IMG/VR virus record: IMGVR_UViG_2568526635_000004
Span: 1-15,494 of that record
DNA length: 15,494 bases
Reading direction: 5' to 3' (one strand)
From: a virus
Lineage: Duplodnaviria > Heunggongvirae > Uroviricota > Caudoviricetes
This document shows positions 1 to 15,494 of this stretch, one piece after another (position 1 is the stretch's first letter; each line of letters begins with the position of its first letter). The notes beneath the pieces are model-generated. The model was not told the DNA's origin and did not search any database. It worked only from the letters and a program-made list of their open reading frames with translations. A program made the translations under genes and the position numbers.

Positions 1-12
1 AAGAATTGAAAA

Positions 13-88
13 CCTCAAAACTGACCACACAACTGACCACACATTTCGTTGAAGCTCTACGAACAACGACGAACAATAACAAACAAAA
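13..88. repeat. Left copy of ~76-bp imperfect direct repeat flanking the element (putative attL); contains internal tandem CTGACCACACA x2 and GAACAA motifs phased at 10 bp
   Basis: Sequence 13-88 reappears at 15320-15397 with 2 substitutions and a 2-nt A-run length difference; every gene of the element lies between the two copies. Confidence 0.7.
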
Positions 89-364
89 GGGAAATTTGCT
101 GGCGGTTTTGCTTAACCGTTATCATTTTCCGGCTATCCGCCATGAAGCTGGTGGATGTTTTTTCTATGCAGATTTGCATAGTTTCAAATGGGGTTGGTCG
201 TTATGGGAATTCCCATATCGGCATCACGCCCACCAGCGTGAAGTATTTTTGTAATTTCGCGGGTGTAAAAATTTGACGAGGCGGGCGGTCCCATAAGCAA
301 TAGGTTGTAGGGATTTCGATCCCCCTCCTGAATGCAATTTTTCGTATATATATATACAAAACAG

Positions 365-517
365 TGCGGGTTATGCGGGTTAGCGGGTTATCTTCGCGTG
401 CTAAGTATTTTTTATTCTTTAATATCAATGCCTTAAAAAATAGCGTGTTTAAATATTATCCAAATCGTAACCCGCAAGTCATTCAAAATAACCCGCAAAC
501 ACCCCCCAAATAACCCG
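365..517. repeat. Iteron cluster: 3 tandem forward GCGGGTTA(T) copies (365-372, 374-381, 382-389), an AT-rich spacer, then 3 inverted copies TAACCCGC (467-474, 488-495, 510-517) at ~21-bp spacing; second origin-like or crr-like site
   Basis: Exact 8-mer matches counted directly; the same motif forms the array at 8647-8769 next to the replication gene; a degenerate copy GCGGGTGTA lies at 259-267. Confidence 0.6.
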
Positions 518-763
518 CAAACGCATCAGGAAAGTGGGTCCAGTGATGCCACCGAACGGCTGAATCGGGTAACGTTCTGTTGCCTGGTTGTTGTTTGCGG
601 GTCAGCAATACTGACGCGCAAAGTTAGTTGTATGTGGCTGTGCGTCCACCAGCTACGCCGGAATGGGGTATTCCGTTTCAACGGAACCGGTATGACGAAC
701 ATGATCGCACCTTCTCCCGAAAACGGTGCGACCTCCATAGAGGAAATGCCTATTCAGATCCCC

Positions 764-1118
764 GGTGATTTTCACCATTCAGAATCTGGAGGGTGAGTTT
801 TCCAGTTTTCCCCAATGGGGGATTCTGGAACAATCAACGGGTTAGCGATTAAGCTGGCGAGTAATTAAACTGCGAAAATTTCGTAGTTTGTGACTATCTG
901 AAAGATAGTCGGTTGTTCCGGCCTCAGCCGTTGGCTGTTCCCGAAAATATCAGTCAGTTACGTTAACCGCTGATTTCTGCCTTTGGTGTGAATACCGTCA
1001 CTTTAACCTACGGTAATCGTTCTGCCTCGGTGCGCGTCTCTTCCGTGGTCATTTCGACCATGCACCACACGAAAAGGTGGAGTGTTTATCACCTCCCCTT
1101 CGTGGTGATTTCCACCAT
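764..1118. repeat. Three copies of a 15-bp dyad motif GGT(G/C)ATTT(T/C)(C/G)ACCAT at 764-778, 1047-1061 and 1104-1118; putative protein-binding or hairpin-forming sites
   Basis: Each copy is an inverted repeat (GGTGA/TCACC or GGTCA..GACC); the second and third copies differ by compensatory changes that preserve the dyad; the surrounding ~30 bp is also similar between copies two and three. Confidence 0.5.
810..845. repeat. 36-bp direct repeat, copy 1 (CCCCAATGGGGGATTCTGGAACAATCAACGGGTTAG), contains CCCC-AAT-GGGG hairpin
   Basis: Matches 1218-1253 with 2 mismatches; a second shared segment (TTCCCGAAAATATCA..AGTTAC at ~936-960 versus ~1286-1310) follows each copy. Confidence 0.55.
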
Positions 1119-1217
1119 GCAGCCATCACACCGCCACGCAAAAGGGATTTACCACTACCAGCTATATCCCTCAAATCCACCAATGGTGGAAAAGCCCACA
1201 GCAGGCCGCCCAGCCTC

Positions 1218-1253
1218 CCCCAATGGGGGATTGTGGAAGAATCAACGGGTTAG
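1218..1253. repeat. 36-bp direct repeat, copy 2 (CCCCAATGGGGGATTGTGGAAGAATCAACGGGTTAG)
   Basis: See copy 1 at 810-845. Confidence 0.55.
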
Positions 1254-1303
1254 GCTGGTTTCCCCGATGTTCGCCGCTGGCGAATTTCGAAAATATCAAC
1301 CAG

Positions 1304-1597
1304 TTACCGCCGCAACCGCTCCGGCTTCTTCCACTGGTAAGTCTTTTTCTCGCTCTCCCGGTACATCTGCACGCGGCGACGGTAGGCCAGCAACTCGAGA
1401 ACTCTGGTACGTATATCGCGCATATCCACGCCGCTAAGCTCGATACCGTCACGGCGCATCACCTCAGCCACCACACGCGCGTAATTTTCGGCTATCACGC
1501 TGTCCGGCTGCGTGACCTCCTGTTTGCCTGCTGCCTGGCTGATTCCGGTAACGCGGCGGATTATTTTTAGTAGTTCGGTTTCGCTCATTCTCGTCAT
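1304..1597 (-). CDS. Hypothetical small protein (97 aa) translationally coupled to the end of the large terminase gene
   Basis: ATG at 1597 overlaps the terL stop (ATGA overlap, 1594-1597); alternative ATG at 1588 with GGGG ~10 nt upstream; no recognisable motif; basic C-terminus. Confidence 0.55.
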   Translation of the reverse strand: MTRMSETELLKIIRRVTGISQAAGKQEVTQPDSVIAENYARVVAEVMRRDGIELSGVDMRDIRTRVLELLAYRRRVQMYRESEKKTYQWKKPERLRR

Positions 1598-3255
1598 ACC
1601 CCATCAAACGCCGCAAGCCGCTCTTTGTGGCTGTCGCTCATATCGAATGCAAAATCCTCGTGCTCTGCCTGGAATGTGCCAAACGCCATCAGCGCCGCAA
1701 CGCTCGGGTCTATCTTGTTGGATGATTTTTTCTTGTTCGGCTTGATATTGGCGTTTGCGTCACTCTGCATCACAACATTACTCATTGACCAGGCCAGCAC
1801 CGGATCACCACGATGCACAATCACCTTCCGGTTAACAAAAACTTCGAACGATTTCGCCGCCGGACTGAAACGAAGGTATGTTTGCGGGAACGGCTCCACC
1901 TCAAATCCTGCCCCCTGTAGCTGCGTCCTCAGGTGCGTGGCGTTCCATGTATCGAAGCCCACCAGCCTGATATTGAAATTCTCTGCATCCGCCATGATGT
2001 CATCACGGATACGGTCATAATCAATGCAGTCACCCGGTGTTGTGCGTATCCAGCCCGCCTTTACCCACTGGCGATAGATGGCGCGGTTTTTATTGGCGGG
2101 GTTCTGTAGCTGAAATTCCGGCAGATAGTGACGGGAAACCAGCATAATCTTTTTACCGACCGGAAAGGCATAGCACACGCTGGAAATATCGCTGGTTGAT
2201 GATAAGTCCAGCCCCGCGTAGCACTCCTGCCCGTATAAATCCGCCTCCGCGAACGTTCCGGCGCACTCCGCCCATGCACCGTTACCCATCCACGGCGTAG
2301 CCCCCTGACACCAGATATTGAATCGCTTGGTGAGCATTTCCACCCACTGCGACGGAATACCCCGCGCTTTCTGGATGGTTGAGGCCAGTTTTTCACGATC
2401 GACGGAAACATCGATATTGGGATTCGCCTTTATCCACATCGCCGGATCGTCAACCTCGCTTTCATCATCCAGCTCGTAAATCAGCACGAACATGGATTCG
2501 TTCACCTCTTCACCATCCAGTATCTGGCAGCAATAGTCGTAGTGTTGTTTACAGGCTGAAACAACGTTGCTCCCCGATGTGGTGATGGCAAATAATAATC
2601 CCTCCGGACGCGCCCCCATTCCCAGTTCAAGCGCGGAATAAACCCCGTTGTCAGGGTGCAGGTGATATTCATCCACAATGGCAAGACTCGGGTTTGTACC
2701 TTCAATGGTTGCCGCTTTTGCTGCCAGTGGCTTTAACAGGCTGTTGGTTTTCGGGTGTATCACCTTGTGTGCCTGAATATTTACCCGTTTTCGTAACGGT
2801 CGGGATAAAAGGCACATCTGACGCGCATCATCAAACACGATCCGCGCCTGATCACGACTCACGGCGGCGGTGTAAATATCCTGCTGCCCGTTTTCCATAA
2901 CCAGAAACCAGTTAGCCAGGATAGCAGCGACCGTGGATTTGGCATTTTTTCGCGGTACTTCAATGAATGCGCTGGTGTATTTGCGCCGTCCGGTGGCCTT
3001 AACCTTAAAGCCCAGGATGCACGCAAAGGCGAACTGCTGCCACGGCTCCAGCTCAATGGGGCTACCGCGCATTGCGCCTTTTACGTGCGGGCACACCCTG
3101 GAAAAGGCAATAAACCGCTCCACGACCTCCGGATCGAACGTGTAAAGGGGGTTTTCAAGGTCAGAAAAATACCGTTTAACGGCCTGTTTCAGTCGTTTAC
3201 AGGCCGTAATTTTGCCGTTTTTTACGCCTTCTGCGTACTCATGCCAGGCGGTCAA
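1594..3255 (-). CDS. terL: Phage terminase large subunit (ATPase plus nuclease)
   Basis: 553-aa ORF with Walker A-like segment (PRKNAKST) and overall terminase-like layout; TTG start at 3255 preceded by strong AGGAAGAGGA Shine-Dalgarno; overlaps terS end. Confidence 0.93.
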   Translation of the reverse strand: MTAWHEYAEGVKNGKITACKRLKQAVKRYFSDLENPLYTFDPEVVERFIAFSRVCPHVKGAMRGSPIELEPWQQFAFACILGFKVKATGRRKYTSAFIEVPRKNAKSTVAAILANWFLVMENGQQDIYTAAVSRDQARIVFDDARQMCLLSRPLRKRVNIQAHKVIHPKTNSLLKPLAAKAATIEGTNPSLAIVDEYHLHPDNGVYSALELGMGARPEGLLFAITTSGSNVVSACKQHYDYCCQILDGEEVNESMFVLIYELDDESEVDDPAMWIKANPNIDVSVDREKLASTIQKARGIPSQWVEMLTKRFNIWCQGATPWMGNGAWAECAGTFAEADLYGQECYAGLDLSSTSDISSVCYAFPVGKKIMLVSRHYLPEFQLQNPANKNRAIYRQWVKAGWIRTTPGDCIDYDRIRDDIMADAENFNIRLVGFDTWNATHLRTQLQGAGFEVEPFPQTYLRFSPAAKSFEVFVNRKVIVHRGDPVLAWSMSNVVMQSDANANIKPNKKKSSNKIDPSVAALMAFGTFQAEHEDFAFDMSDSHKERLAAFDGV

Positions 3256-3595
3256 GCTCGTCCTCTTCCTCTGTTTCAGGTGGATTTCTGCGGCGGCTTA
3301 CCGGGTCAAAACCCAGCAAAGAAGCCATTTTGATCATTATTCTTTCTGCGTCAGCCTTTGCGCTCAGGGCGGGGTTTCTGCTCTCGCTGCCCTGACTGTT
3401 AACAATGCTGAACCCGCGCGTGGCAAGGTCTTCGACGGCTTTGCGGTATATGGAGTAGTTAACGCAATACAGCTCCAGATTGCTCCAGTCGGCGGGGGTA
3501 AGGTCTTCCCGTCCGGAAAGCTGGCGCGATTTTTCCTTCCACTGCCTGACCGCGATTTCATCCAGGTAAGCGGGGGCTTTTGGTGGTCTTGCCAT
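3239..3595 (-). CDS. terS: Phage terminase small subunit, P27-family-like
   Basis: N-terminus MARPPKAPAYLDE typical of P27-family small terminases; an in-frame ATG at 3736 with better Shine-Dalgarno would add 47 aa, so the true start is uncertain. Confidence 0.78.
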   Translation of the reverse strand: MARPPKAPAYLDEIAVRQWKEKSRQLSGREDLTPADWSNLELYCVNYSIYRKAVEDLATRGFSIVNSQGSESRNPALSAKADAERIMIKMASLLGFDPVSRRRNPPETEEEDELDRLA

Positions 3596-3883
3596 GTTCT
3601 TTTTTCGCCCAATTATTTTCAAAAAAATTCCCGTGCACAAAAATTTGAGGGGGCGGTCGGTGTCCGGCAGGGACGGTTTCGTCCTGAAAACCACCCCCAC
3701 CCCCTCTGACGGCCTCACCAGCGATTGCGAAAACATTCCATGACCTCGCGGTCACGGTCGGTTAATCGCTTCGCTGTGGTGCGTTTTGTGCGCCCTGTCC
3801 TGTTGGCTTTGTGCTCTGTCTCCTGTGTCTTCCATGTGTCACGCTGCCTTATCAGTCCACGTATCAGCCTGGTTTGCTCCTGT

Positions 3884-4324
3884 TCAGTCATCATCGCCAT
3901 ACATCCAGTCGTTACGGTGTGCCGCCCGTTCTTCCTGCTCGCGATACATGCCCGCTTTACGGTTTGCTTTCGTGGCTGGATCTTCCCGTGTCGTCTTACG
4001 GTTGTGGCACGTCTGGCACAATGCCTGGTGATTCCACTCAGGCCAGAAGAGAACATCACCGCCGCCATTGATGGGAATGATGTGATCCACCACAAGAGCT
4101 GGCGTATAAATCCCCTTAGCCAGACAACGCACGCATAACGGGTTTTTGCTCAGGTACAGGGCGCGGTATTTGTCCCACTGTCGGGAATACCCGCGCGCGC
4201 GGCGGTGTCCCCGTCTGGCATCCTCTGCACGCCATGCAGCCCGCCTGTGCTCTTCACACTTGCCGGACTTCACGCGCTTATTACAGCCAGGCTCAGTGCA
4301 TCGCCTTAATGGTTGCCACGGCAT
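3884..4324 (-). CDS. HNH endonuclease (phage packaging-associated)
   Basis: Cys-rich zinc-finger-like N-terminus (CTEPGCNKRVKSGKC), VVDHIIP and NHQALCQTCHNRKT motifs; ATGA overlap with the upstream connector gene. Confidence 0.9.
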   Translation of the reverse strand: MPWQPLRRCTEPGCNKRVKSGKCEEHRRAAWRAEDARRGHRRARGYSRQWDKYRALYLSKNPLCVRCLAKGIYTPALVVDHIIPINGGGDVLFWPEWNHQALCQTCHNRKTTREDPATKANRKAGMYREQEERAAHRNDWMYGDDD

Positions 4325-4626
4325 CAGTACACCCCTACGTCACGATAAACTGACCAGAGCGCAGAAATAGCCATAGGCAGTTCCGAGTGCTCCACTGGTG
4401 AAACCGCTTCCCGGTTCTCGTACAGGAAAGCGATGTACATCAGGCAACCAACACGCATTGCCGGGGTAAATTCCAGCCCGTCTTCAAAACGTTTCCCGAT
4501 ATGCTTCTGGCAGGCTTCCAGCGCCGCATCGGTATACATTTTCAGAAGTTCGCCTTCACCGGATAAATCATCATCAAGTCGAAGATGTGCCCTGACTTCA
4601 TCAGGTGTAATTCTGGCTTCACTCAT
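4324..4626 (-). CDS. gp6-like head-tail connector / adaptor protein
   Basis: Start MSEARITPDEVRAHLRLDDD resembles gp6-like head-tail connector proteins; ATG at 4626 has AGGGAG Shine-Dalgarno; the six-frame ORF extends to 4713 but that part overlaps the portal gene. Confidence 0.78.
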   Translation of the reverse strand: MSEARITPDEVRAHLRLDDDLSGEGELLKMYTDAALEACQKHIGKRFEDGLEFTPAMRVGCLMYIAFLYENREAVSPVEHSELPMAISALWSVYRDVGVY

Positions 4627-5833
4627 CTTTTCTCCCTTTAATTTCCACAGTCTGTTTCCATGCCTGGCTGAACTCATCACCACCTTCACGCGGCGGCATA
4701 CCCTCACGCTCACGGGCTTCGTTCGGATTCATGATCCCGTTCTTAATCCCTTTCTCATACGTGGCATAACGTTCGGTGGGTGTGGCGCGTAATAAATCGG
4801 CTGAATCAAACTCAACCAGATAACGGGTACCAGGTACGGGAGAAGCCACCAGCAAAGCGGCCTTGATTTGCTGTTCGAAGTTCGCCAGCCACGGGCGCAT
4901 TGTCATGGTCAGAAACGCGCGGCTTGCCTCGCTGAAATTGCTGTAGGTGCTGTTGCTGTATTCCTGCAGAAAAATCGGCGACACGTTGAACATCCTGGCG
5001 ATGTCTTCAATGGAGAAGCGACGGGAGGCCAGCCATTCCGCATCCTGGTTACTCATTCCCAGTTGCTTGTAATCCATGCCCCCTTCAAGGATTGGCGTTT
5101 TTCCGGCATTTTTCGCCCCCTTGTAGCGTTCCAGGGCGTCTAATGCCTGTTTACCTTTCACACCGTCCAGCCATTCGCCTGACGTGATAATCCCTGCCGC
5201 CATCATGCCATCTTTCATAATGCTGGCTCCGTGACGCTGTTGAGCAAGGCCAAGCCCCAGCGCCTCACGGCAAATCGTGACGGGGGAACGCCCCAGAAAG
5301 CCATCATCCGAGGCATAGCGGAGATGCAGAACTTCTTCCTGTAAATACGTGCGCACCGTTCCTGTACAGGGTTCGGTGATGGTATAGCGGTATTTGTGTG
5401 CGCCTGTGCGTTCCGGTACAACACACCCCGGCGCATAAGGATGAAGTGATTTTGGCTGCCCGTCCTGCCCCCACTCAATAACCGCATAGGCGTTACCGTT
5501 CAGCAGGCAGTGACGCATCATTGTGCGTTTAAACTGGTAAGGTGTCTGGCACGAATTAGGCTGCTCATTCAGCAGAATATCTACCGGGTGACTGTCCAGC
5601 CATTCCCGCGCCTCCCTGCCCTTGTCATTACGTACCAGATACAGATAACACGGCATCGTGGCCACCGCCTCAGCGATGACAGAAACCGCATTCATCACTG
5701 CAGGCAATGATTCAGCCGTCCCGGCAGAAACATATTCTCCGGATCCGGTATTCGGTACGCCGGACAGCGCCAGAAAATCATCAATGGACAGGTTACGCTG
5801 CTCGCTTTTTTTACGACTAAAAGGCCACCACAT
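4619..5833 (-). CDS. Phage portal protein, HK97 family
   Basis: ~400-aa ORF with portal-like sequence between protease and connector genes; ATG at 5833 with GGGG Shine-Dalgarno chosen over the upstream TTG at 5923, which would overlap the protease gene by ~90 bp. Confidence 0.88.
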   Translation of the reverse strand: MWWPFSRKKSEQRNLSIDDFLALSGVPNTGSGEYVSAGTAESLPAVMNAVSVIAEAVATMPCYLYLVRNDKGREAREWLDSHPVDILLNEQPNSCQTPYQFKRTMMRHCLLNGNAYAVIEWGQDGQPKSLHPYAPGCVVPERTGAHKYRYTITEPCTGTVRTYLQEEVLHLRYASDDGFLGRSPVTICREALGLGLAQQRHGASIMKDGMMAAGIITSGEWLDGVKGKQALDALERYKGAKNAGKTPILEGGMDYKQLGMSNQDAEWLASRRFSIEDIARMFNVSPIFLQEYSNSTYSNFSEASRAFLTMTMRPWLANFEQQIKAALLVASPVPGTRYLVEFDSADLLRATPTERYATYEKGIKNGIMNPNEAREREGMPPREGGDEFSQAWKQTVEIKGRKDE

Positions 5834-5834
5834 A

Positions 5835-6395
5835 TCACAACCCCGCCAGCTCAGACCAGCGATGACGATTATTTCCTGTCGGACGTAATTCAGGGTGCTG
5901 TGCAAACAACGAACGGTGGGCAATCTCCACGCCAGATTCTGGATAAGCAGGCATCGACGTTATTGTGATTTCACGGAGTTCAGCGGCGGTTACGGTACGC
6001 AGATACGGTTTTTGCGCGATACTCCACTCCTCGCATAATGCGCGAAAACCAAAGCTCATTCCTGTAATGTCGCCACGCTCCACCAGCGTAAGCACATCTT
6101 TTCCAAGCTGGGTATCCGGCGGTGTCAGTTCAAAACGTAACCCGGTGTTATCCTCAGTCAGTACCAGAGTGCCGGATTTGGTGCGCCCCAGCAGTTGGGT
6201 ATAGTCATGCTCATACAGGCAGCGCACATCATTACCCGTCGCCAGATAGTCAGCAAAAGCCCCCGGCGTGAACTGTTCGCGGAATTCGTCCCAGATAATT
6301 TCTGAAAGGCTGTTCCAGCGAACGGCATACCCCACCAGCTTTTTATTGCTGGCGGTCAGTTCAGATGTGCGGATTTCAAAATCGGTATTTTTCAT
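5835..6395 (-). CDS. HK97-family prohead (head maturation) protease
   Basis: 186-aa ORF with typical prohead protease segments (GYAVRWN, HDYTQLLGRT); GGAG Shine-Dalgarno 9 nt upstream of the ATG. Confidence 0.9.
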   Translation of the reverse strand: MKNTDFEIRTSELTASNKKLVGYAVRWNSLSEIIWDEFREQFTPGAFADYLATGNDVRCLYEHDYTQLLGRTKSGTLVLTEDNTGLRFELTPPDTQLGKDVLTLVERGDITGMSFGFRALCEEWSIAQKPYLRTVTAAELREITITSMPAYPESGVEIAHRSLFAQHPELRPTGNNRHRWSELAGL

Positions 6396-6411
6396 CGGTA
6401 TACTCCATAAA

Positions 6412-6438
6412 GCTGAAAAAGGAGGCCGAAGCCTCCTC
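6412..6438 (-). terminator. Rho-independent terminator or attenuator between major capsid and protease genes
   Basis: On the minus strand: AGGAGGC-UUCG-GCCUCCU (7-bp GC-rich stem, UUCG tetraloop) followed by a U-tract; sits 12 nt after the capsid stop codon. Confidence 0.65.
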
Positions 6439-6449
6439 CTTACTCATGA

Positions 6450-7619
6450 CTAGCCAGCTTTCATTTCCAGAATTTTGATGGCGTTTGAATCCACCACACC
6501 ACCGCCCAGATATTTATCCGTGTGGACCTTGTAGAATCCGGGTTCAGTAATGTTGTCCGGTCGGGTGCGAATCCCTGTTACATGATCAACGATGAAATAA
6601 CCACGACTGAAATCGCCAACCGCTAGCGGTGCTTTTCCTGCGCCGATGTCCGGCATGGACTCCAGGCAGTAAACAGGACGACCAAGCAACATATCCGGCG
6701 CACCTTCTTTAAGGCTGTCGCGCCAGATATAATCGCCGTTCTCATTTTTCAGCTTCTGTAGTGTCCCTGCCGTGCCCGAGTTCATCACCCAGACGGCATT
6801 TTTGCGGTATTTCGCTTTCAGCTTGTAGAGAATGTCGATCAGTTCGTCCGCTGTAATGGCGGTTCCACTTGCCGCTACCATTTTTTCAATGGTGCCAAAA
6901 GCGCGGGTTTTGTCACTGGTCGCCGCACGGGTGTAAGCCATGAAGCCTTTCGGCTTGCCGTTACCGTCGCCATTAACAAAATCATCCTCTTCGGTGCTGA
7001 CGAACGTGTCGGCAATTTCGGAGGATAACCAGCCCAGAATATCCACCTCTGAAAAATCCAGGATTTCCTGCGTGGTTTTCGGGTAGGCGTAGATCGGATT
7101 CAGCTTGATGGTTACGCGTTCAATTTTCGGGGTGTTGGTTTCACTGCGTGCGCTGCCTTCTGTGCCTCGTCCTACAGTTGCGCCGCCAGTGGAAACCAGT
7201 TTCTGAAACTCATTTGATTTTGCGGTCTTCACGGTCGCGATCACGCGCATAACACTGTCATCCTGTAGCTGGCGCATGACTTCGCGATCGAGCTCAGGAA
7301 TTACGGTATATCCGCCATCCCTGCCGCTGTCAGTGCTGGTGGACAGTGATCGCACATCTCCGGTTACGATGTAGTTACGCAATTCATCAGATGATAATTT
7401 CTGGATGCCCGTTCCTGGCTTGCTGCGTTCTTCATCAGCCACAGACTCGAGGCGGGAAATTTCTGTGTCGAGAGAATCGGCTTTTGCACGCAGTTCATCA
7501 AACTGTTTGCCCTCGTCATCGTTCAGGCTGCGGTTTTCACTGTCGGCTTTTTCCAGCAGGGATCGCATCTGGTTTTTCAGGGCGGTTTTTTGCTGGCGGA
7601 GTTCGATTAATTTCTTCAT
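6450..7619 (-). CDS. HK97-fold major capsid protein with N-terminal coiled-coil scaffold (delta-like) domain
   Basis: 389-aa ORF; charged coiled-coil-like N-terminal ~100 aa followed by MCP-like body and a C-terminus typical of HK97 capsid proteins. Confidence 0.92.
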   Translation of the reverse strand: MKKLIELRQQKTALKNQMRSLLEKADSENRSLNDDEGKQFDELRAKADSLDTEISRLESVADEERSKPGTGIQKLSSDELRNYIVTGDVRSLSTSTDSGRDGGYTVIPELDREVMRQLQDDSVMRVIATVKTAKSNEFQKLVSTGGATVGRGTEGSARSETNTPKIERVTIKLNPIYAYPKTTQEILDFSEVDILGWLSSEIADTFVSTEEDDFVNGDGNGKPKGFMAYTRAATSDKTRAFGTIEKMVAASGTAITADELIDILYKLKAKYRKNAVWVMNSGTAGTLQKLKNENGDYIWRDSLKEGAPDMLLGRPVYCLESMPDIGAGKAPLAVGDFSRGYFIVDHVTGIRTRPDNITEPGFYKVHTDKYLGGGVVDSNAIKILEMKAG

Positions 7620-7689
7620 GAAGGTTTTCTCGTATTGGTTAAGATTCAGGACGTGAAACCAACACGGAGGGAGCGCCGCCCGACACTCT

Positions 7690-7839
7690 CGGCATCTCGC
7701 AGATCAACCCGGCATCGCGCAGGGGGTCAGGCGGCATTGTGGCGGCTCACGTCTGAGTGCCACACGCCAACATATACATAAAAATCAGTATGTAAACATC
7801 AGCCAGAATCACCGAACAATCTGGAACAACCGCGAACAA
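7690..7839. promoter_or_regulatory. Regulatory region upstream of the head operon: direct repeat CGGCATC(T/G)CGCAG x2 (7690-7702, 7710-7722), dyad TGTGGC-N15-GCCACA (7738-7764) and three GAACAA motifs at exact 10-bp phasing (7814, 7824, 7834)
   Basis: Repeats read directly from the sequence; the region lies between the upstream operon terminator and the capsid start codon. Confidence 0.45.
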
Positions 7840-7856
7840 ATAATTTACAAAACCTG

Positions 7857-7884
7857 AAAAAAAGACCCGGGGTAAATCCGGGCC
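7857..7884 (-). terminator. Rho-independent terminator ending the replication/early operon
   Basis: On the minus strand: 7-bp stem GGCCCGG/CCGGGUC with a 7-nt loop followed by 7 U residues; 10 nt downstream of the 82-aa ORF stop. Confidence 0.75.
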
Positions 7885-7893
7885 TTTATCGCT

Positions 7894-8142
7894 TTACTGT
7901 TTCACGGGATCGCGCATTCTGCGCCTTATTTTCCACAAATATTCGATCATCGCTTCCACCTGCTCACGGTTGGTTGCGAAAATTTCCCCGGTCAGTGAGC
8001 TGCGCAGAAAATCATGATGATCCACAACAAATAACGCATCGGAAGAAAGCAGACGGCGATATTTTTTTGCTGTCGTGGTTTCCAGATCATCAATACCATG
8101 AAACTTTTTATGTTGCTGAACTTCTTCAAATGTCACTGGCAT
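7894..8142 (-). CDS. Hypothetical small protein (82 aa), basic C-terminus
   Basis: ATG at 8142 with AGGGGGA Shine-Dalgarno; followed by a strong terminator; no recognisable motif. Confidence 0.6.
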   Translation of the reverse strand: MPVTFEEVQQHKKFHGIDDLETTTAKKYRRLLSSDALFVVDHHDFLRSSLTGEIFATNREQVEAMIEYLWKIRRRMRDPVKQ

Positions 8143-8159
8143 GTATCCCCCTGTTATCG

Positions 8160-8582
8160 CTAAAAGGGTATGTTATCCCCGTATGGATCATCATTCCCCG
8201 CCTGTTGCTTAGCCCTATTTAGAGCGTCAGTAGCCTGGCCCTGCTGGCCTTTTTTGCCACCAGGTCGCGCCGTTCTGGCACTGATTACGCTGTCTGCGAT
8301 AACCTGCCAGCCCTGCCGCGTTTCCCCGTTCTGGCCTGTCCACTGGCTTACCTGCATGTTACCCGCCACGCTCACCAGCTCGCCTTTGTGGTGTTTTGCC
8401 AGTGCGTCGGCCTGTCTGCCAAACGCCAGAACGGATAACCACATCGTCGCCTGTCCGTCATCTGCCTGATTGCACGGCAGGGGGACAGCCATGCTTGCCA
8501 TAGCCATTTGTGTGCCCTTGCTGGTGGTCTTTAACTGCGGGTCAGCCACCAGCCGCCCGTAAGCTGCTATCTGTGCTGTCAT
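8160..8582 (-). CDS. ssb: Single-stranded DNA-binding protein-like (SSB-like) with acidic C-terminal tail
   Basis: 140-aa ORF with OB-fold-like layout, Gly/Gln-rich linker and a C-terminal DDPYGDNIPF resembling the canonical SSB DDDIPF tail; GGAGAA Shine-Dalgarno. Confidence 0.7.
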   Translation of the reverse strand: MTAQIAAYGRLVADPQLKTTSKGTQMAMASMAVPLPCNQADDGQATMWLSVLAFGRQADALAKHHKGELVSVAGNMQVSQWTGQNGETRQGWQVIADSVISARTARPGGKKGQQGQATDALNRAKQQAGNDDPYGDNIPF

Positions 8583-8646
8583 GCTGTCTGTTCTCCGGTT
8601 TTAACGTTGATAGTTACGCTTGTTTACACCCTTACGGTGAAATTCT

Positions 8647-8769
8647 GCGGGTTATAATCGCACTTTTGCGGGTTATAACTGCCGTTTTGCGGGTTACGTG
8701 CGGGTTATTGATTTCCTTTTTATTCATACAGTTAATGCACTTACACACAGGATAACCCGCATAACCCGC
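8647..8769. repeat. Origin-like iteron array: 4 forward GCGGGTTA copies (8647, 8668, 8689, 8700; 21/21/11-bp spacing), AT-rich spacer, 2 tandem inverted copies (8753-8760, 8762-8769)
   Basis: Exact repeats counted in the sequence; located immediately downstream of the primase/helicase gene, with the AT-rich segment 8709-8750 between the arms. Confidence 0.7.
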
Positions 8770-8793
8770 AACTTTTCACCTCACACAGGGGAG

Positions 8794-10917
8794 TTAATCT
8801 TCTGCCTCAGGCTGGAACATCATCACGTAAAAAACATGCTGCTTACCCCCAATTTTGCCGAGCGCCTTTTTCTTGTAACGGCGATCGTTACCCGCTTCCA
8901 GCATTCCGGCAGCACTCAACGCGCGGGCAAAGTGGGATGGGTTAAATCCCTGTGCGATCTCCCCCTCAAACACATGAGGAAACGTGTAAAAACGGAACTC
9001 ATCATCTTCATTTCTGATACTCCCCTTTCTGTATCCGGCAAGGTCTTTAATCGGTAAATCACGCTCGTCGGTGTTGGGCCACGGAAGGTATCTGCTGAAT
9101 CCGAACGACGCTAAAAAAGCCTCTGCCTGTTCAACCATCTGTTTAAACTCCCTGTTACCCGTGCCGAACTCCTTCACCCAGGCATTAAAATTATGCTGAA
9201 TGGCATCGCGGCATTCCTGCTCATTCCAGCCAGTAACATGACCGGAAAGCACAAGCGCGGCCTCCAGTATGGCGAAACGCTCACCCACGCGGTGGACCTG
9301 CTCGCCGTAGCTCTCCGGTATCAGGTTGCGCCACCGTTCACGGCATGCCCTTACCATGTCCTTTGCCTCCTGCTGGTGGTCTGCCAGCCATTTAACCCAC
9401 TCACGCCCCGCCGCCCCGTGATTTTCTGTCCAGGCATCTTTTAACGCGTCTGCGTGCGCCTTTCCGGTGCTGTATTCGTGAAATTGTGTGGCTTTTTCCA
9501 TCGGCACGTTAAGCAGGCGGACAAGCTGCCCCGCCTTGACTTTTATCCCCTCCGTTTTGAGGAATGTTTCAACGTCCATTTCTCCGGTACTGATTGCCAC
9601 CGTTCGCCAGTGTTTTATCTCCCTGTTGCCGCCGTCCTTCGCCCCCTGTAATTTCCCGGAACCGTTAAACAGCGTATAAGCAGACGTTGACACCTCCCGC
9701 GCGTTTCCGGCCTGGCCTATTTCATCCAGGGGTAACAGCCCGTCGTTGTGTGCCTCTGCCTCGTTGGCGATACCTAACGCTGTGCCGTACCAGGTCAGCC
9801 GCTGCGCGTCCGGCTCTCCCCATAAACTTGATGCGATGTTCTGCGTTGTGGTCTTACCTGCCGATGACTGTTCGAAAAGATGTACCCCGAAGCCGTCAGC
9901 ACCCACCAGCCCGATTAATGGTGCGGATAGCGATACCGCCACACCCAGCATCATGGACGGATTACCACCAGCCAGTCGCGCCACACTGTCGCGCCAGCCC
10001 TCCGCCGTTCCTGCCACGGAATAACCATTAACGGCAGCCGTTTTTCCGGTAAACAGGACTGGCTTTTCGCAATCACCAATGACCGAACCGTCCGGCATGA
10101 TGTACGCGCCAAAATGCCAGCCCGTTGTTGTGCTTAACTGCCATTCCTCATGGTTTCCGCTTAACTGCATCCAGTCAGCCAGGATAGCCCTGTATTTACC
10201 GTTGGTTGTCACGTTCAGTCCGTGGTCTTTCAGCAGCCGCCAGCCGTCACGGTCGCCAATGCCACCGCACGGAACCGCCATCGTGATGACTTCATGGTTT
10301 GCTGGCTTTTTCCAGCGCATCACGCGGTAATGCTCTTTGCCGATTGTCCCCGTTCCCAGTAGCTCAAGCGGGGAGCATAACCACGTTTCAGGCCGGATAA
10401 TTTCGCCTGACTGCTTATCCACTTTTGGCGTTACCCAGAAAACACCATCGGCGCGGCTTTCAACGCGGGGCTTTAATTCATCATCACCCGGGCTTTCTGT
10501 GATTTTTTTCTTTAAGGGCAACACCAGACTTTCCCCGCGCTCGTATTCGTCTTTGAGGCGAGGCAACTGGTCGGATAAATCCGCCGGGCTGGTGTCAGTT
10601 ATCCCCGCGTATTCGTATACGGTCTTCACGCCAGCCACAGCCAGCAACGTGACGATCTGTGTGAGGCTACGTTCAGTGATGTGCCCTGCGCGGTAAATAC
10701 GCACACACTGACGGCTATCATCAATAATTTGATAACCGGTAATATCTTTCAGGTGTTCATCTGACAGAACGACAGGCGGCACATTGTCGGCGGCAATATG
10801 CTTACCTGCCCATTCCTGCCACTCTTTCGCATGGCTCCACGCATCACTACCCGCAAAGATGATAACCTCCGTCATTTTGTCGGCTGGCTGGTGCTTTAAG
10901 TTTGGTGCGCGCTTCAT
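8794..10917 (-). CDS. Replication initiation protein, primase/helicase type (P4 alpha-like, Walker A GKT)
   Basis: 707-aa ORF with a central P-loop (FEQSSAGKTTT) and large flanking domains; ATG at 10917 with GGGGAAAGG Shine-Dalgarno, ATGA overlap with the upstream ORF; the exact family was not verified. Confidence 0.8.
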   Translation of the reverse strand: MKRAPNLKHQPADKMTEVIIFAGSDAWSHAKEWQEWAGKHIAADNVPPVVLSDEHLKDITGYQIIDDSRQCVRIYRAGHITERSLTQIVTLLAVAGVKTVYEYAGITDTSPADLSDQLPRLKDEYERGESLVLPLKKKITESPGDDELKPRVESRADGVFWVTPKVDKQSGEIIRPETWLCSPLELLGTGTIGKEHYRVMRWKKPANHEVITMAVPCGGIGDRDGWRLLKDHGLNVTTNGKYRAILADWMQLSGNHEEWQLSTTTGWHFGAYIMPDGSVIGDCEKPVLFTGKTAAVNGYSVAGTAEGWRDSVARLAGGNPSMMLGVAVSLSAPLIGLVGADGFGVHLFEQSSAGKTTTQNIASSLWGEPDAQRLTWYGTALGIANEAEAHNDGLLPLDEIGQAGNAREVSTSAYTLFNGSGKLQGAKDGGNREIKHWRTVAISTGEMDVETFLKTEGIKVKAGQLVRLLNVPMEKATQFHEYSTGKAHADALKDAWTENHGAAGREWVKWLADHQQEAKDMVRACRERWRNLIPESYGEQVHRVGERFAILEAALVLSGHVTGWNEQECRDAIQHNFNAWVKEFGTGNREFKQMVEQAEAFLASFGFSRYLPWPNTDERDLPIKDLAGYRKGSIRNEDDEFRFYTFPHVFEGEIAQGFNPSHFARALSAAGMLEAGNDRRYKKKALGKIGGKQHVFYVMMFQPEAED

Positions 10918-11228
10918 TTTGCCTTTCCCCGTTCACGAATAATTTCACGTACTGCCTTAATGCGTTCCATTCCTGTAACGCGCATGATTCTGTCGATGTC
11001 GCTTAATTCTGCTGGTGGTGCTTTGCTTACCAGGGTGAACTCCCTGTCAAAGCGCATATGTGACGACACGCAGGGATGCGCATAACCTTCGCGGATATAG
11101 GTCACACGAAAATCATCGACGGTTTTAATCGTTATCGTGCTGCCGTATTTATCCCGGAAAATATCACCGGGGCGGATTTCAGGCCGAGCGTGACCGCTGG
11201 CAGTAAAGCCAGAATTTTTCTTTTTCAT
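10914..11228 (-). CDS. Hypothetical protein (104 aa) coupled to the primase gene
   Basis: ORF with ATG start; its stop overlaps the primase start codon; no recognisable motif. Confidence 0.6.
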   Translation of the reverse strand: MKKKNSGFTASGHARPEIRPGDIFRDKYGSTITIKTVDDFRVTYIREGYAHPCVSSHMRFDREFTLVSKAPPAELSDIDRIMRVTGMERIKAVREIIRERGKAK

Positions 11229-11234
11229 GTTTTT

Positions 11235-11453
11235 TTACTCCAGAGGCAGCTTTTTAGCGGCGAGCTCAATATCAGATGTCAGAGAAACCTGTGTATTTGC
11301 CAGGTCTAACAACAAAGAAATAAGAATTTCTTCTCTGCTATCGGATTTATCGGTGCTAAGGCTGTTCATCCACATATTGACGACTTCCCTGATTTTTTTC
11401 GCAGAGTGCAGGGCTTCAAATGCCAGGTCTTCAATATCATGTTTATTTCGCAT
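11235..11453 (-). CDS. Hypothetical small protein (~72 aa), relatively AT-rich
   Basis: ATG at 11453 preceded by a GGGGG Shine-Dalgarno; the ORF track offers a longer version to 11483; overlaps the stop of the upstream small ORF. Confidence 0.5.
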   Translation of the reverse strand: MRNKHDIEDLAFEALHSAKKIREVVNMWMNSLSTDKSDSREEILISLLLDLANTQVSLTSDIELAAKKLPLE

Positions 11454-11688
11454 AATCGCCCCCGCCATTTTCACAATCAGCAATCAGGATGGCTTTAGCC
11501 TCATTCAGCGCCATATCAGCGGTAAGCTGTGCGTAAGCCAGCGAATGCGGGATTATCGCCCCTGTATATTCCGTCTCTCTGGTAATGTGTTTTTCTGCGG
11601 TTGCTACCGTGCATGAAATATCAATCAGCGCGTGCATCAGCGTTTTGATGGCTTCGGCGGCTGCGTCCGGACGGGTGTTATTGCACAT
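11443..11688 (-). CDS. Hypothetical small protein (~81 aa)
   Basis: ATG at 11688 with GGGGG Shine-Dalgarno, overlapping the stop of the Ash/Icd-like ORF; the six-frame ORF extends further upstream but that part overlaps the neighbouring gene. Confidence 0.5.
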   Translation of the reverse strand: MCNNTRPDAAAEAIKTLMHALIDISCTVATAEKHITRETEYTGAIIPHSLAYAQLTADMALNEAKAILIADCENGGGDYAK

Positions 11689-12217
11689 GGCGCACCCCCT
11701 GACGAATACGGGCGGCGAATACAGCGACACAACCTGACGGGCAATGGTTACGCGCTTCGCGTTCCGTCCAGGCGGTGACGTGGATGATTTGGGACTCTGA
11801 CGCGCCAAAGATGATAAAGCGCCAGATAAAGGCAGTTTGGGAATGTACAAGGGTAGGGATAGTAGCCATGTTGGCAGCCTCTTCGTTAGGTTTAATAAAC
11901 CCACCGCAGGAAACGCCAATTTCGCTGGCGGTGGACTGTACAGGGTTGGCGTAACCGGTTAACGAAGAACCCGGCGCGGATTGCTCCGCCCCCATACAGC
12001 CCACCATTGATAAGGTGTGACTATCCGGCACAAAAAAACACGCAGGGCGCGTGTTGTGCGCTTCGTTAAATACCAGGACGCCAATCCCGGCACCAGATTT
12101 TGCTGGTGCGGGTAAATCATAGCCCTGGCTGGCAGTGGCGATCAACAGGTTTTTTACATCGGGTTTATTCAGGTTGTGCGAGTCCCGCCCTTGCGGGTGT
12201 GTGGTATGATTTAGCAT
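11678..12217 (-). CDS. Ash-family-like protein with C-terminal Icd-like (cell-division-inhibitor-like) segment
   Basis: Segments AKSGAGIGV, FFVPDSH, SMVGCMGAEQ, ANPVQSTASEIGVSCGG recall Ash-family proteins of P4-like elements; the C-terminal FIWRF...TEREAR...FAARI recalls Icd-like peptides (an internal ATG at MATIPTL could yield a ~62-aa product); start at 12217 has a GAGGT Shine-Dalgarno. Assignment is from memory of these families, not from a search. Confidence 0.5.
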   Translation of the reverse strand: MLNHTTHPQGRDSHNLNKPDVKNLLIATASQGYDLPAPAKSGAGIGVLVFNEAHNTRPACFFVPDSHTLSMVGCMGAEQSAPGSSLTGYANPVQSTASEIGVSCGGFIKPNEEAANMATIPTLVHSQTAFIWRFIIFGASESQIIHVTAWTEREARNHCPSGCVAVFAARIRQGVRHVQ

Positions 12218-12314
12218 AGCTACCTCGATACGCTTTCTATCGTTGGTGGTTAGAAGCCCTGCGAGTGGTAACGACACTTGCGGGGCTTTGCATTTATGCA
12301 CCTTGATAACCTCA

Positions 12315-12350
12315 AGGTGTGGCCCACTATATGCTTTAGGTGTGGTCCAC
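12315..12350. promoter_or_regulatory. Two operator-like 13-bp direct repeats AGGTGTGG(C/T)CCAC, each containing the dyad GTGG-N-CCAC, in the divergent control region
   Basis: Repeats at 12315-12327 and 12337-12350; immediately upstream of a TATACT -10-like hexamer (12381-12386) and the plus-strand small gene. Confidence 0.5.
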
Positions 12351-12416
12351 GTCAAGGGTTTTATTTGTGCTTTTTCTGTGTATACTGTCCCCCACCAATC
12401 CAACAGAGGAATAGAA

Positions 12417-12596
12417 ATGGCAACGGGTACAACAAACGCAAAATCACAAGCTCTAAAGGCTCGTGTACCACACGAAATAGTAAACGCCATGGAATCAGTG
12501 AAAGAATCAGGCGAAAGCACATCACAATTCATCATTGCGTCAATGCAAGGCGAGATCAAACGCCGCCAGCGCAGGAAGGCCAAAGAGCAGGAATAG
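12417..12596 (+). CDS. Small ribbon-helix-helix-like (Arc/MetJ-type) DNA-binding protein, candidate repressor
   Basis: 59-aa ORF (MATGTTNAKSQALKARVPHEIVNAMESV...) with GAGGAA Shine-Dalgarno 7 nt upstream; N-terminal basic beta-strand-like segment followed by helices; the only plus-strand gene, divergent from the replication operon. Confidence 0.6.
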   Translation: MATGTTNAKSQALKARVPHEIVNAMESVKESGESTSQFIIASMQGEIKRRQRRKAKEQE

Positions 12597-12729
12597 CCCA
12601 CCAGCAAGCCAGCACATTCACCATAATGACCCTCGGTTAAACCTAGAGTCATTGGTGCAAACCTGACAGATTGCCCACCAGCCAGCAAATCGCTATGATG
12701 TTCGGGCTTATGTTTAGTGTTTTCCCATT

Positions 12730-12758
12730 GGCGACCGCCCCCGGTCGCCTTTGTTTTA
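12730..12758 (+). terminator. Rho-independent terminator on the plus strand
   Basis: Perfect 8-bp stem GGCGACCG/CGGTCGCC with CCCC loop followed by TTTGTTTTA; ~135 nt downstream of the plus-strand small gene. Confidence 0.7.
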
Positions 12759-12776
12759 TGTGCCATATACTCCCCT

Positions 12777-13001
12777 TTACGCTGCCTTGCCTGAATTAAT
12801 GCGATCCCGGCTTTTAACCCATTCCATAACCTCGGACAGCAGCCAACCTACAGAACGACCGCCCAGATTAAGACGTGACGGAAAGCATCCTTTTTTCTCC
12901 AGTTCGTAGCGTGTAGTGCGGCACACTCCTGTTAACTTACGGCATTCATCCTCACGGATTACGCGATCTGATAGTGATTGCGATTGTTTGAGTTGGTTCA
13001 T
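12777..13001 (-). CDS. alpA: AlpA-family transcriptional regulator (excisionase-like helix-turn-helix)
   Basis: SDRVIREDECRKLTGVCRTTRYELEKKGCFPSRLNLGGRSVGWLLSEVMEWV matches the AlpA/phage regulatory protein pattern; ATG at 13001 has a GAGGG Shine-Dalgarno (the ORF track extends to 13037). Confidence 0.85.
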   Translation of the reverse strand: MNQLKQSQSLSDRVIREDECRKLTGVCRTTRYELEKKGCFPSRLNLGGRSVGWLLSEVMEWVKSRDRINSGKAA

Positions 13002-13079
13002 ATAAAAACGCCCTCGTTCGTTATCGTTCGAGAGCATTTTTTATGAGAGAAAATAGGTAAGCAATAAACAAAAAAATAA

Positions 13080-14075
13080 TTATTTTTCTTTATTTATTTT
13101 GTATTCGCTAAGTAATTTATAAATTTTAGGTCTAATTTTTTCTAAAAATGGTATAACTGTTTGTTCAAGCCCGAAACCATCACGCTCACCATTGGGATAA
13201 ATCATGGATGCAAGAACACGCTTTGGGACTCTTCTTTTTGTTCCAAATGTATAAAACTTAGCCAACATCAATAAATCCATAAGCGGTATAATTTTATATT
13301 TTATTATTCTCTCTCTCAAATATCCCCATGCCCGTTTGGGTTCAGGCTCTTCTAAATTGAGTTCTTTTCTCCATATCGGTAATAATTTTTTTAAATCAGA
13401 TAATATCTCATCATCTGTTTTTGTAATATCAAGTGACAAGTGCATTGCATAAGAAAAGCCTTCACTATTAGACTTCATCAATTCAGGCGCAACTGCACTT
13501 AAACTCTCATTTGCCAAAGTAAATAGAAGTTCATCATCATACTCAGATAAATAATCGACATCTTCAGAGCTCAACAATAATGTGCGCTCAGTTCCTGCAC
13601 CCGATGATGGTTTTTTCCAAACATAATTTTCAAGCATTATTCTTCGCAAAGGGACTACGGTTCGAGTTGATGATAACATATGAGGAAAAAAACCTTTATA
13701 CAGTTCTTTTCTTATGTTTTTTTCATAAAACGAATAGTCCGCACCAATATCATCGCCAATAACTGAAGATGCAAATATCTTTCTAAACCGACCAGAAACA
13801 AAAGCAATCTCAGTTTCTATTGATGGAATTTTTGAATTAATAATATCTTTTGTCTCATTCTCATCTTCTGGCAAACTCCTTACATCGATAAAATTCTCAT
13901 ACAAATAAGCCATAAAGTGTTCTTCATCTTCTACAACAAACCCCTTTATAAATCTGTTGTAATCCTCTCTACGCATTAACTGAGTAATCAATTCAAAATC
14001 ACTCATATCGGTAAAAACTTCATACTTCCCCAAATTAAAGCCCAATGCTTCTGCAAAATTTTTAAAAGAAATCAT
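13080..14075 (-). CDS. Hypothetical 331-aa cargo protein, strongly AT-rich, unknown function
   Basis: Uninterrupted ORF whose ATG overlaps the integrase stop (ATGA at 14072-14075); nucleotide composition visibly far more AT-rich than the rest of the element; no recognisable catalytic motif by eye. Confidence 0.8.
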   Translation of the reverse strand: MISFKNFAEALGFNLGKYEVFTDMSDFELITQLMRREDYNRFIKGFVVEDEEHFMAYLYENFIDVRSLPEDENETKDIINSKIPSIETEIAFVSGRFRKIFASSVIGDDIGADYSFYEKNIRKELYKGFFPHMLSSTRTVVPLRRIMLENYVWKKPSSGAGTERTLLLSSEDVDYLSEYDDELLFTLANESLSAVAPELMKSNSEGFSYAMHLSLDITKTDDEILSDLKKLLPIWRKELNLEEPEPKRAWGYLRERIIKYKIIPLMDLLMLAKFYTFGTKRRVPKRVLASMIYPNGERDGFGLEQTVIPFLEKIRPKIYKLLSEYKINKEK

Positions 14076-15292: not shown

Positions 15293-15319
15293 TATCAGAT
15301 CCTCTTTTCAGTCCTCCAG

Positions 15320-15397
15320 CCTCAAAAAACTGACCACACAACTGACCACACATTTTGTTGAAGCTCTACGAACAACGACGAACAACAACAAACAAGA
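15320..15397. repeat. Right copy of the ~76-bp imperfect direct repeat (putative attR), immediately upstream of int
   Basis: See left copy at 13-88. Confidence 0.7.
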
Positions 15398-15494
15398 AAA
15401 CACAATAATACAATATATATCAAATACATACACAAACAACCACGAACAAACCCGAACTGCAAAAAACACTAAATGAGAAAATACGGGTATTTCT

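Follow-up and report, generated by a model that had tools for sequence, protein, structure and literature searches.

The window analysed here is the whole of a 15,494-nucleotide stretch (positions 1 to 15,494 of the IMG/VR virus record IMGVR_UViG_2568526635_000004), and it is occupied by one integrated satellite, a capsid-forming phage-inducible chromosomal island (cf-PICI) of about 15.3 kb. The subject of this study is a non-coding region near one end of the island, at positions 605-1303, which represents the cargo-less form of a hypervariable accessory slot. The slot is bounded by the final gene of the packaging operon on one side and by a second iteron cluster and cos on the other; it is assembled from short non-coding modules, and its dominant module is a 44-bp composite site made of a palindrome and a consensus site for integration host factor (IHF). 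All genes of the window are on the minus strand. As defined by Pfam, PHROG and NCBIfam matches, an int-alpA-rep block is followed by capsid-protease-portal-connector-HNH-terS-terL, tail genes are absent, and att repeats flank the element; the same gene order has been published for proteobacterial capsid-forming PICIs (bioRxiv 10.1101/2022.09.08.507074). In particular, the island encodes an integrase, AlpA, a DUF927 primase-helicase (8794-10917), SSB, an HK97-type capsid protein, protease, portal, connector, HNH, a small terminase assigned to the P27 family by its profile match, and the large terminase (1594-3255). The att ends are a direct repeat of about 80 bp, at about 12-95 and 15318-15400, and thiM lies just left of position 1 in relatives. 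An earlier note, made from the letters alone, had placed the repeat-rich region downstream of the terminase genes; the region is indeed 3' of the packaging operon, and the gene that it abuts is a 97-amino-acid open reading frame (ORF) after terL (1304-1597; phrog_1561), the last gene of that operon.

The repeat had been described in the earlier note as a 36-bp element in two copies. The repeat is real, and it is in fact a 44-nt composite unit present in four copies, in which a 15-nt palindrome of the form T-NNNCC-NNT-GGNNN-A is followed by a 9-nt spacer and by WATCAANNNNTTR, the consensus of IHF binding sites. The four units are all on the plus strand and align without gaps. Unit U1 (802-845) has the palindrome TTCCCC-AAT-GGGGGA at 808-822, the spacer TTCTGGAAC and the IHF consensus AATCAACGGGTTA at 832-844; U2 (918-961) has (T)CAGCC-GTT-GGCTG(T) at 924-938 and, beyond the spacer, the near-consensus IHF site TATCAGTCAGTTA at 948-960, with a WATCAR variant of the core; U3 (1210-1253) has TCCCCC-AAT-GGGGGA at 1216-1230, the spacer TTGTGGAAG and again AATCAACGGGTTA at 1240-1252; and U4 (1264-1307) has TTCGCC-GCT-GGCGAA at 1270-1284, a spacer and the IHF consensus TATCAACCAGTTA at 1294-1306, overlapping the stop codon (1304-1306) of the 97-amino-acid gene. 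U1 and U3 are 89% identical, U4 is a diverged copy (64%), and U2 is related. A further plus-strand copy at 1176-1214 consists of the palindrome only (TCCACC-AAT-GGTGGA plus AAAGCCCACAGC), its tail being different from that of the composite units. The palindrome TCCMCCAATGGKGGA is found at three sites (808-822, 1176-1190 and 1216-1230) where 0.14 would be expected, and the repeat tail CGAAAATATCARYCAGTTAC occurs twice with none expected. Exact matches to WATCAANNNNTTR number five in the 15.5-kb window versus 0.7 expected, a count that none of 200 shuffles attained, and four of the five are located within 423-1306, three in units and one in the AT-rich core of the iterons. On the strength of these matches, IHF binding at the unit cores can be inferred.

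The same layout recurs in related islands; the comparison covered 68 loci taken from IMG/VR and nine located in complete E. coli genomes. Among 120 IHF-like sites in the related tails, 111 have the orientation seen in the window (111:9), and such a site overlaps the stop codon of the 97-amino-acid gene in 27 of 57 loci. In some classical PICIs a module with a unit, or with a palindrome of the 1176 type, is also present upstream of this gene. A search of 185,579 representative genomes with a 20-base unit pattern returned only two matches, at chance level, and none in other species.

A second family of symmetric sites is represented by the 15-bp dyad GGTSATTTYSACCAT, which is found exactly at 764-778 (M1a, GGTGATTTTCACCAT, 24 nt upstream of U1 and within a conserved module at 665-845), 1047-1061 (M1b, GGTCATTTCGACCAT) and 1104-1118 (M1c, GGTGATTTCCACCAT), with a two-mismatch copy on the minus strand at 1183-1197; these four matches compare with 0.35 expected, and none of 200 shuffles reached four. 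A perfect hairpin, GACTATC-TGAAA-GATAGTC, lies at 891-909 within a module that also moves between relatives, and a further non-coding module at 605-763 is 84-99% conserved in many related islands. The motifs listed in the earlier note (dyads, repeat and the 891-909 hairpin) are therefore all present, the dyads and repeats far above chance. The note had also pointed to compensatory changes between the dyads at 1047 and 1104, and these are borne out, as the difference between M1b and M1c is a pair of matching changes (G>C and C>G, turning G:C into C:G) that keeps the symmetry.

Selection on this symmetry, which the earlier note had proposed from the dyads, is evident across related islands for both the 44-nt unit and the 15-bp dyad. 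Indeed, 53 distinct units from related tails have at least 11 different stem sequences whose arms stay complementary: 65% of cells in the arms pair, versus 48% in shuffled sequences, and at least five of six Watson-Crick pairs are formed in 37 of the 53 units, versus 8.7% of shuffled sequences. The covariation score of the units is 0.403 against 0.188 when shuffled (0/500), and register 0 beats all slid registers. Similarly, the 15 distinct variants of the dyad family are 85.6% paired, with double changes at two positions, and their covariation score (0.216 versus 0.088) beats every shuffle and every slid register. It is because the covariation of the arms exceeds both shuffles and slid registers that selection on symmetry can be asserted.

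The composite units have a counterpart in phages. When positions 96-1303 were compared with 50,697 phage records, the matches were to the cos region, to one unannotated record, and to stretches of 35-47 bp inside roi or anti-repressor genes, and the latter coincide with the composite units themselves. With a second, independent island tail (L077), only Roi-type genes were matched, plus positions without an annotated feature. Thus, for both tails, the matches outside cos fall in roi, anti-repressor or 'DNA-binding protein' genes or in equivalent unannotated positions, bar one unannotated record. In addition, all four units of the window find their best match to 70 roi loci at one and the same place, strand and register, with identities of 34/44 (U1), 29/44 (U2), 37/44 (U3) and 30/44 (U4) versus a shuffled maximum of 25-27. 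U3 reaches its 37/44 in the roi genes of phages of the Shiga toxin (Stx)/JLK-2012 type; JLK-2012 and Stx phage roi genes carry TCCTCA-AAT-TGAGGA with TTGTGGAAG and AATCAATGGGTTAGG. The pRha-like ant gene of Salmonella phage SSU5 contains TTCCACC-AAT-GGTGGAA with AAGCCCACAGC and resembles the palindrome-only copy, which is 89.7% identical to the wing-coding part of ant. Roi has a Phage_pRha and an ANT domain, and the segment matched by the units encodes the wing of the pRha domain.

Within roi the segment is itself unusual. In 80 roi loci (L082-L161, codons about 41-56) there are about five versions of it, each with its own palindrome and an IHF consensus, and the versions are sharply different even though the genes are 83-100% identical overall. 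The roi gene of HK022 has one unit (L162 4778-4823), which holds the only IHF consensus in 10.7 kb. In the IHF core of roi, leucine is encoded by TTA in every one of the 17 distinct segments and also in HK022, and TTA makes up only 10.7% of the leucine codons in these genes; since this rare codon is always kept in the core, the constraint appears to be at the level of DNA rather than of coding. Roi reportedly binds a site within its own gene beside an IHF site, and IHF is said to stabilise the binding. The plus strand of the units in the window corresponds to the sense strand of roi, and the genes of the island are on the minus strand. Tails contain only the 44-nt wing segment and no other sequence of roi, and no convincing M1-like dyads were found in the roi loci.

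The absence of a credible ORF in the region, as noted earlier, is upheld, as the ORFs of the region have no Pfam or PHROG match and no codon-position bias. In particular, for the ORFs at 526-738 and 653-778, which are open in some relatives, the variable sites are distributed 10:10:11 and 13:8:12 by codon position, and under most related copies of the region no gene is annotated in RefSeq. Two coding explanations were also discarded. The dyads, read as mini-ORFs on the minus strand (start ATGGT, M-V-K/E-I/M-T), have no Shine-Dalgarno sequence, and their frames end after 9-41 codons. As for an antirepressor pseudogene, tblastn of Roi and SSU5 Ant matched only wing segments of 13-14 residues, and therefore the units are not gene remnants. 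A scan for tRNA genes was negative.

The slot is highly mosaic. Of 5426 complete E. coli genomes, 532 contain pieces of 727-1303, for the most part with 90-100% identity; the pieces occupy at most four places per genome, always in island tails, and the arrangement of the window occurs in only one of the 5426. In one relative (L001) the order of modules is changed, 1176-1307 preceding 989-1182, and in another (L002) the sequence between window positions 844 and 1294 is replaced by a PerC-family regulator and a 96-amino-acid protein. Cargo bounded by composite units was found at L002 2696-3403, L028 4439-5144 and L021 4578-5969, including isolates of Shiga toxin-producing E. coli (STEC), and it comprises the PerC-family regulator, the conserved 96-amino-acid protein and sometimes a small ribbon-helix-helix-like protein. 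Mosaic breakpoints lie in or at IHF cores (841-845, 952/1241, 1252-1255 and 1302-1307), and hybrid units exist that are joined inside the ATCA core. A different array is found in a cf-PICI with a 100% identical TerS (L005 4300-4375), where five GTCAC direct repeats with an exact 10-bp spacing come right after the 97-amino-acid gene; as they stand there instead of composite units, the slot holds other phased repeat arrays elsewhere.

On its far side the slot is bordered by the second iteron cluster (364-604), in which TAACCCGCAA is repeated seven times around an AT-rich core with an IHF consensus at 423-435. Iterons at 511-520 and 595-604 show that the left edge of the originally noted region belongs to this separate cluster. 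The 10-bp iteron occurs 13 times in the window versus 1.2 expected, in two clusters 8 kb apart, and 364-604 repeats, in inverted form, the architecture of the rep-proximal origin (8645-8771): both have three iterons at the same spacing, an AT-rich core, and then adjacent iterons in opposite orientation. Beyond it, near the att end and about 1 kb downstream of terL, a minus-strand homolog of the phiP27/HK97-type cos is located at 248-328, and its cohesive ends are predicted to have the sequence CGCCCGCCTC (278-287, minus strand). The homolog shares 84.5% identity with the annotated cos region of phiP27, which sits between HNH and terS, and 88.9% with linear Burkholderia phage records at places no more than about 115 bp from their termini. 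No other piece of the tail is as well conserved in related islands, among them those encoding only the small terminase. A second, more diverged cos-like sequence, GACCGCCCCCTCAAATTTTTGTGCACGGGAATTTTT, is present on the minus strand at about 3640-3700, in the canonical HNH-terS position, and shares the orientation of the homolog at 248-328. The window is also rich in Chi sites (GCTGGTGG), with 17 in 15.5 kb versus 0.5 expected from shuffles, for instance at 147-154 (plus), 230-237 (minus) and 646-653 (minus), the last being inside an invariant 20-bp stretch of module 605-763. With the polarity that we take Chi to have, the first Chi to either side of the cos homolog (147, plus; 646, minus) would be oriented to stop RecBCD coming from the cos-cut end.

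Two further features of the island deserve mention. The 97-amino-acid gene comes after terL in cf-PICIs, and in classical PICIs after terS. Its product has no Pfam, NCBIfam or PDB sequence match, and a single-sequence structure model gives a three-helix bundle (pLDDT 73) without a fold match at E<1; neither sequence nor structure comparisons gave a clue that it might bind the units, and its search of representative-genome contigs led to no confirmed loci. The gene might be 'hypothetical gene 1792', the loss of which lowered EcCIEDL933 transfer. Elsewhere, the minus strand at 11924-12109 has adjacent Rfam matches to isrK (80 bits) and to C4 antisense RNA (75 bits); a long ORF that matches Phage_ASH covers them but is spurious. 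By these matches the pair is a predicted P4/P1-type RNA immunity module inside a capsid-forming PICI.

The reading that we tentatively favour, with a confidence somewhat short of even, is that the region is an array of DNA sites for IHF and a partner protein, for which the Roi of a helper phage is the best candidate, and that the cores also serve as recombination linkers. The units would act on double-stranded DNA, IHF bending it at WATCAANNNNTTR and a dimeric partner occupying the neighbouring palindrome. A role at the level of DNA is favoured because the IHF consensus is kept in units that are only 64% identical and because the rare codon is fixed in roi, and a partner protein beside the IHF bend is suggested by the fixed distance between the centre of the palindrome and the IHF core. 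If roi runs with the direction of packaging, as in lambdoid maps, the units have opposite orientations with respect to packaging in the phage and in the island, and protein binding to duplex DNA would be the feature common to both. The DNA-level role, the fixed spacing and the orientation together therefore favour the array of IHF and partner sites. The partner would most likely be a Roi/Rha-type winged-helix protein from a lambdoid helper, and the array might soak up or sense it; both the binding of Roi and a decoy or sensor role are speculative. The array may also supply an IHF-bent architecture beside the second origin-like site and cos, and its conserved IHF cores would be the crossover points at which modules and cargo genes are deleted, duplicated and swapped. 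The suggestion of the earlier note that the region is a regulatory target for helper sensing may thus be made more concrete, if still speculatively, by the match to phage roi genes.

Several points weigh against this reading. Its main weakness is that the stems vary freely, as is more typical of hairpins than of operators, and the stem types, at least 11 in number, are too diverse for any single protein to read them all. The M1 dyads and the 891-909 hairpin are without an identified counterpart, and domain searches of the proteins of the window found no island-encoded member of the pRha family. The IHF-like core could be partly inherited from the I-N-x-L codons of roi. The units are dispensable, some related islands having only 46-128 bp in their place. 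Finally, a symmetric DNA-binding role leaves the 111:9 orientation bias unexplained and requires an added assumption, namely that the copies arose by tandem duplication or that inverted ones were selected against.

A variant that goes further, and that we regard as unlikely, is that the slot is a fast-evolving decoy or sensor array copied from the roi genes of helpers, each unit mimicking the Roi/IHF site of one allele or, when transcribed, being antisense to it. If this were true, the island would titrate or read out a regulator of its helper, with the shuffling of units tracking helper diversity, and this would be a new kind of satellite-helper interaction, in which the satellite imitates an operator located within a phage gene.

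An action at the level of RNA is also doubtful. Read-through of the minus-strand operon would give a hairpin-rich 3' untranslated region, which could stabilise mRNA in the manner of repetitive extragenic palindromic (REP) sequences or silence helper roi as an antisense through loop-loop contacts. Indeed, the units are antisense to roi mRNA when read from the minus-strand genes of the island, the first unit overlaps a stop codon and is therefore transcribed, the operon is followed by no convincing intrinsic terminator, both strands fold far better than shuffles (z about -5), and variable compensated stems are typical of RNA hairpins. However, for the structured non-coding RNA that the earlier note had offered as an alternative there is no positive evidence: Rfam gave no match at gathering score for positions 1-1700 and nothing credible even at E<5, and promoter- and terminator-like sites do not exceed shuffle expectation. 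An overall architecture is not conserved either, modules being reordered or absent in relatives, although local hairpins do covary. The G:T wobbles of the units outnumber A:C on the plus strand (10 versus 4), the wrong strand for operon read-through, a difference that is not decisive for the transcribed strand. Moreover, the stems are only 5-7 bp long, the complementarity to any one roi allele is 66-84%, and pairing alone would keep neither the exact IHF consensus nor the rare TTA.

It is likewise improbable that the units are functionless linkers or scars, that is, boundary sequences recopied by homologous or microhomology recombination with islands and phage roi genes, so that the window would be what is left after cargo loss. 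This would suit the extreme mosaicism, with a single genome sharing the arrangement of the window though 532 carry pieces of it, as well as the reordering of modules between relatives, the hybrid units joined inside the ATCA core, and the islands from which units are wholly absent. Neutral scars, however, would not preserve symmetry through compensatory changes, nor would a perfect IHF consensus persist in units as diverged as U4, and the restriction of the tails to the wing segment of roi also speaks against this view.

Very unlikely, in our judgement, is a function as core-type sites of a site-specific recombinase, with IHF as an accessory bend (compare C'-H' of lambda attP), in cassette exchange or in integration into roi. 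The geometry of a palindrome with an adjacent IHF site, the position of the units at cassette boundaries in one orientation, the presence of the same sequence in a phage gene, and the end of U3, GTTAGGC, which fits the integron core pattern GTTRRRY, would agree with it; on the other hand, the breakpoints lie in the IHF core and not at the centre of the palindrome, this 3-nt centre is too short for the overlap region of a tyrosine recombinase, the att of the island is the different repeat of about 80 bp described above, and the only integrase has the P4-type domain set Arm-DNA-bind_3 and Phage_integrase.

The first interpretation of the earlier note, cosB-type sites for the small terminase, does not survive the comparison of related islands. 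In the related HK97 system the small terminase requires just one 15-bp site, which lies at +15 to +29 relative to the cut and towards terS (PMC11331095). Here the repeat region lies about 200 bp from the cos homolog on the HNH side, beyond the iteron cluster, and so does not adjoin the cut on the terS, first-packaged side. Nor do the units vary with the cognate terminase: cf-PICIs with TerS and TerL 99-100% identical to those of the window have different unit sets, and among islands with the same terminase the distance from the 97-amino-acid gene to cos is 482, 543, 695, 792, 836, 842, 1012 (the window), 1205 or 3382 bp, so that the units are dispensable for a given terminase; in non-capsid-forming relatives it is as little as 46-128 bp. 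Thus, although repeats with IHF sites within about 0.3-1 kb of a cos homolog superficially recall the R3-I1-R2-R1 arrangement of lambda cosB (PMC9026076), a role in directing packaging is scarcely tenable, as the side is wrong, a single site suffices for this type of TerS, tails differ even with a 100% identical TerS, and the surroundings of the phiP27 cos are free of such repeats.

The means by which Gram-negative PICIs detect their helpers and disturb them are understood in part; the accounts of cf-PICIs consulted report that the helper activates alpA expression and leave the mechanism unstated. An array that copies the palindrome/IHF segment of roi is a concrete and testable cis element for such cross-talk. 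In addition, a phiP27-type cos candidate is now located near the att end for this island family, and the PerC-family cargo slot of relatives, including those from STEC, is bounded by units, an arrangement that may account for the gain and loss of these genes. Should the units do no more than bind IHF, they would be a small extension of the known set of IHF-associated palindromic repeats.

With respect to known systems, lambda cosB shares with the region repeated protein-binding sites and an IHF bend near cos. They differ in that neither the side of cos nor the distance from it is right for cosB here, that the region is not maintained together with the terminase, and that terminases of the P27/HK97 type with HNH use a single site. 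Integron attC sites similarly combine variable palindromes of conserved symmetry with a position at cassette borders in one orientation; they are imperfect palindromes of 57-141 bp with an R''/R' core, whereas a unit measures 44 bp, of which the palindrome takes up 15, and the island has no integron integrase, its crossovers are at the IHF core and its cargo genes keep their own orientation. The two iteron clusters recall the ori/crr pair of P4, where clusters of the same iteron also lie kilobases apart in a satellite with a C4/isrK immunity RNA region of the P4 type, although the iteron sequence and the replication protein of the island, a DUF927 helicase-primase, are different. No mention of arrays of palindrome and IHF units in satellite tails was found in the literature searched, and the nearest described elements are of two kinds. 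One is the RIB/RIP (BIME-1) class of E. coli, in which REP palindromes on both sides of an IHF site mark the 3' ends of transcription units: both are repeated, short extragenic palindromes with an IHF consensus after the last gene of an operon, and in both the function may be architectural, but the units have no sequence similarity to REP, have one 15-bp palindrome instead of two of about 35 bp, and are confined to satellite tails and roi genes rather than dispersed at many chromosomal loci. The other is the reported Roi/IHF site inside roi of lambdoid phages (HK022, Stx phages), which has the same 44-bp layout in register with up to 37/44 identity, and shares the spacer types TTGTGGAAG, TTTCGAAAA and TTCCGAAAG and allelic variants of the palindrome; in the phage it is a single copy in coding sequence, in the wing of the pRha domain, whereas the islands, which have no roi-like gene, carry it in non-coding DNA as arrays of two to five copies, four of them in the window.

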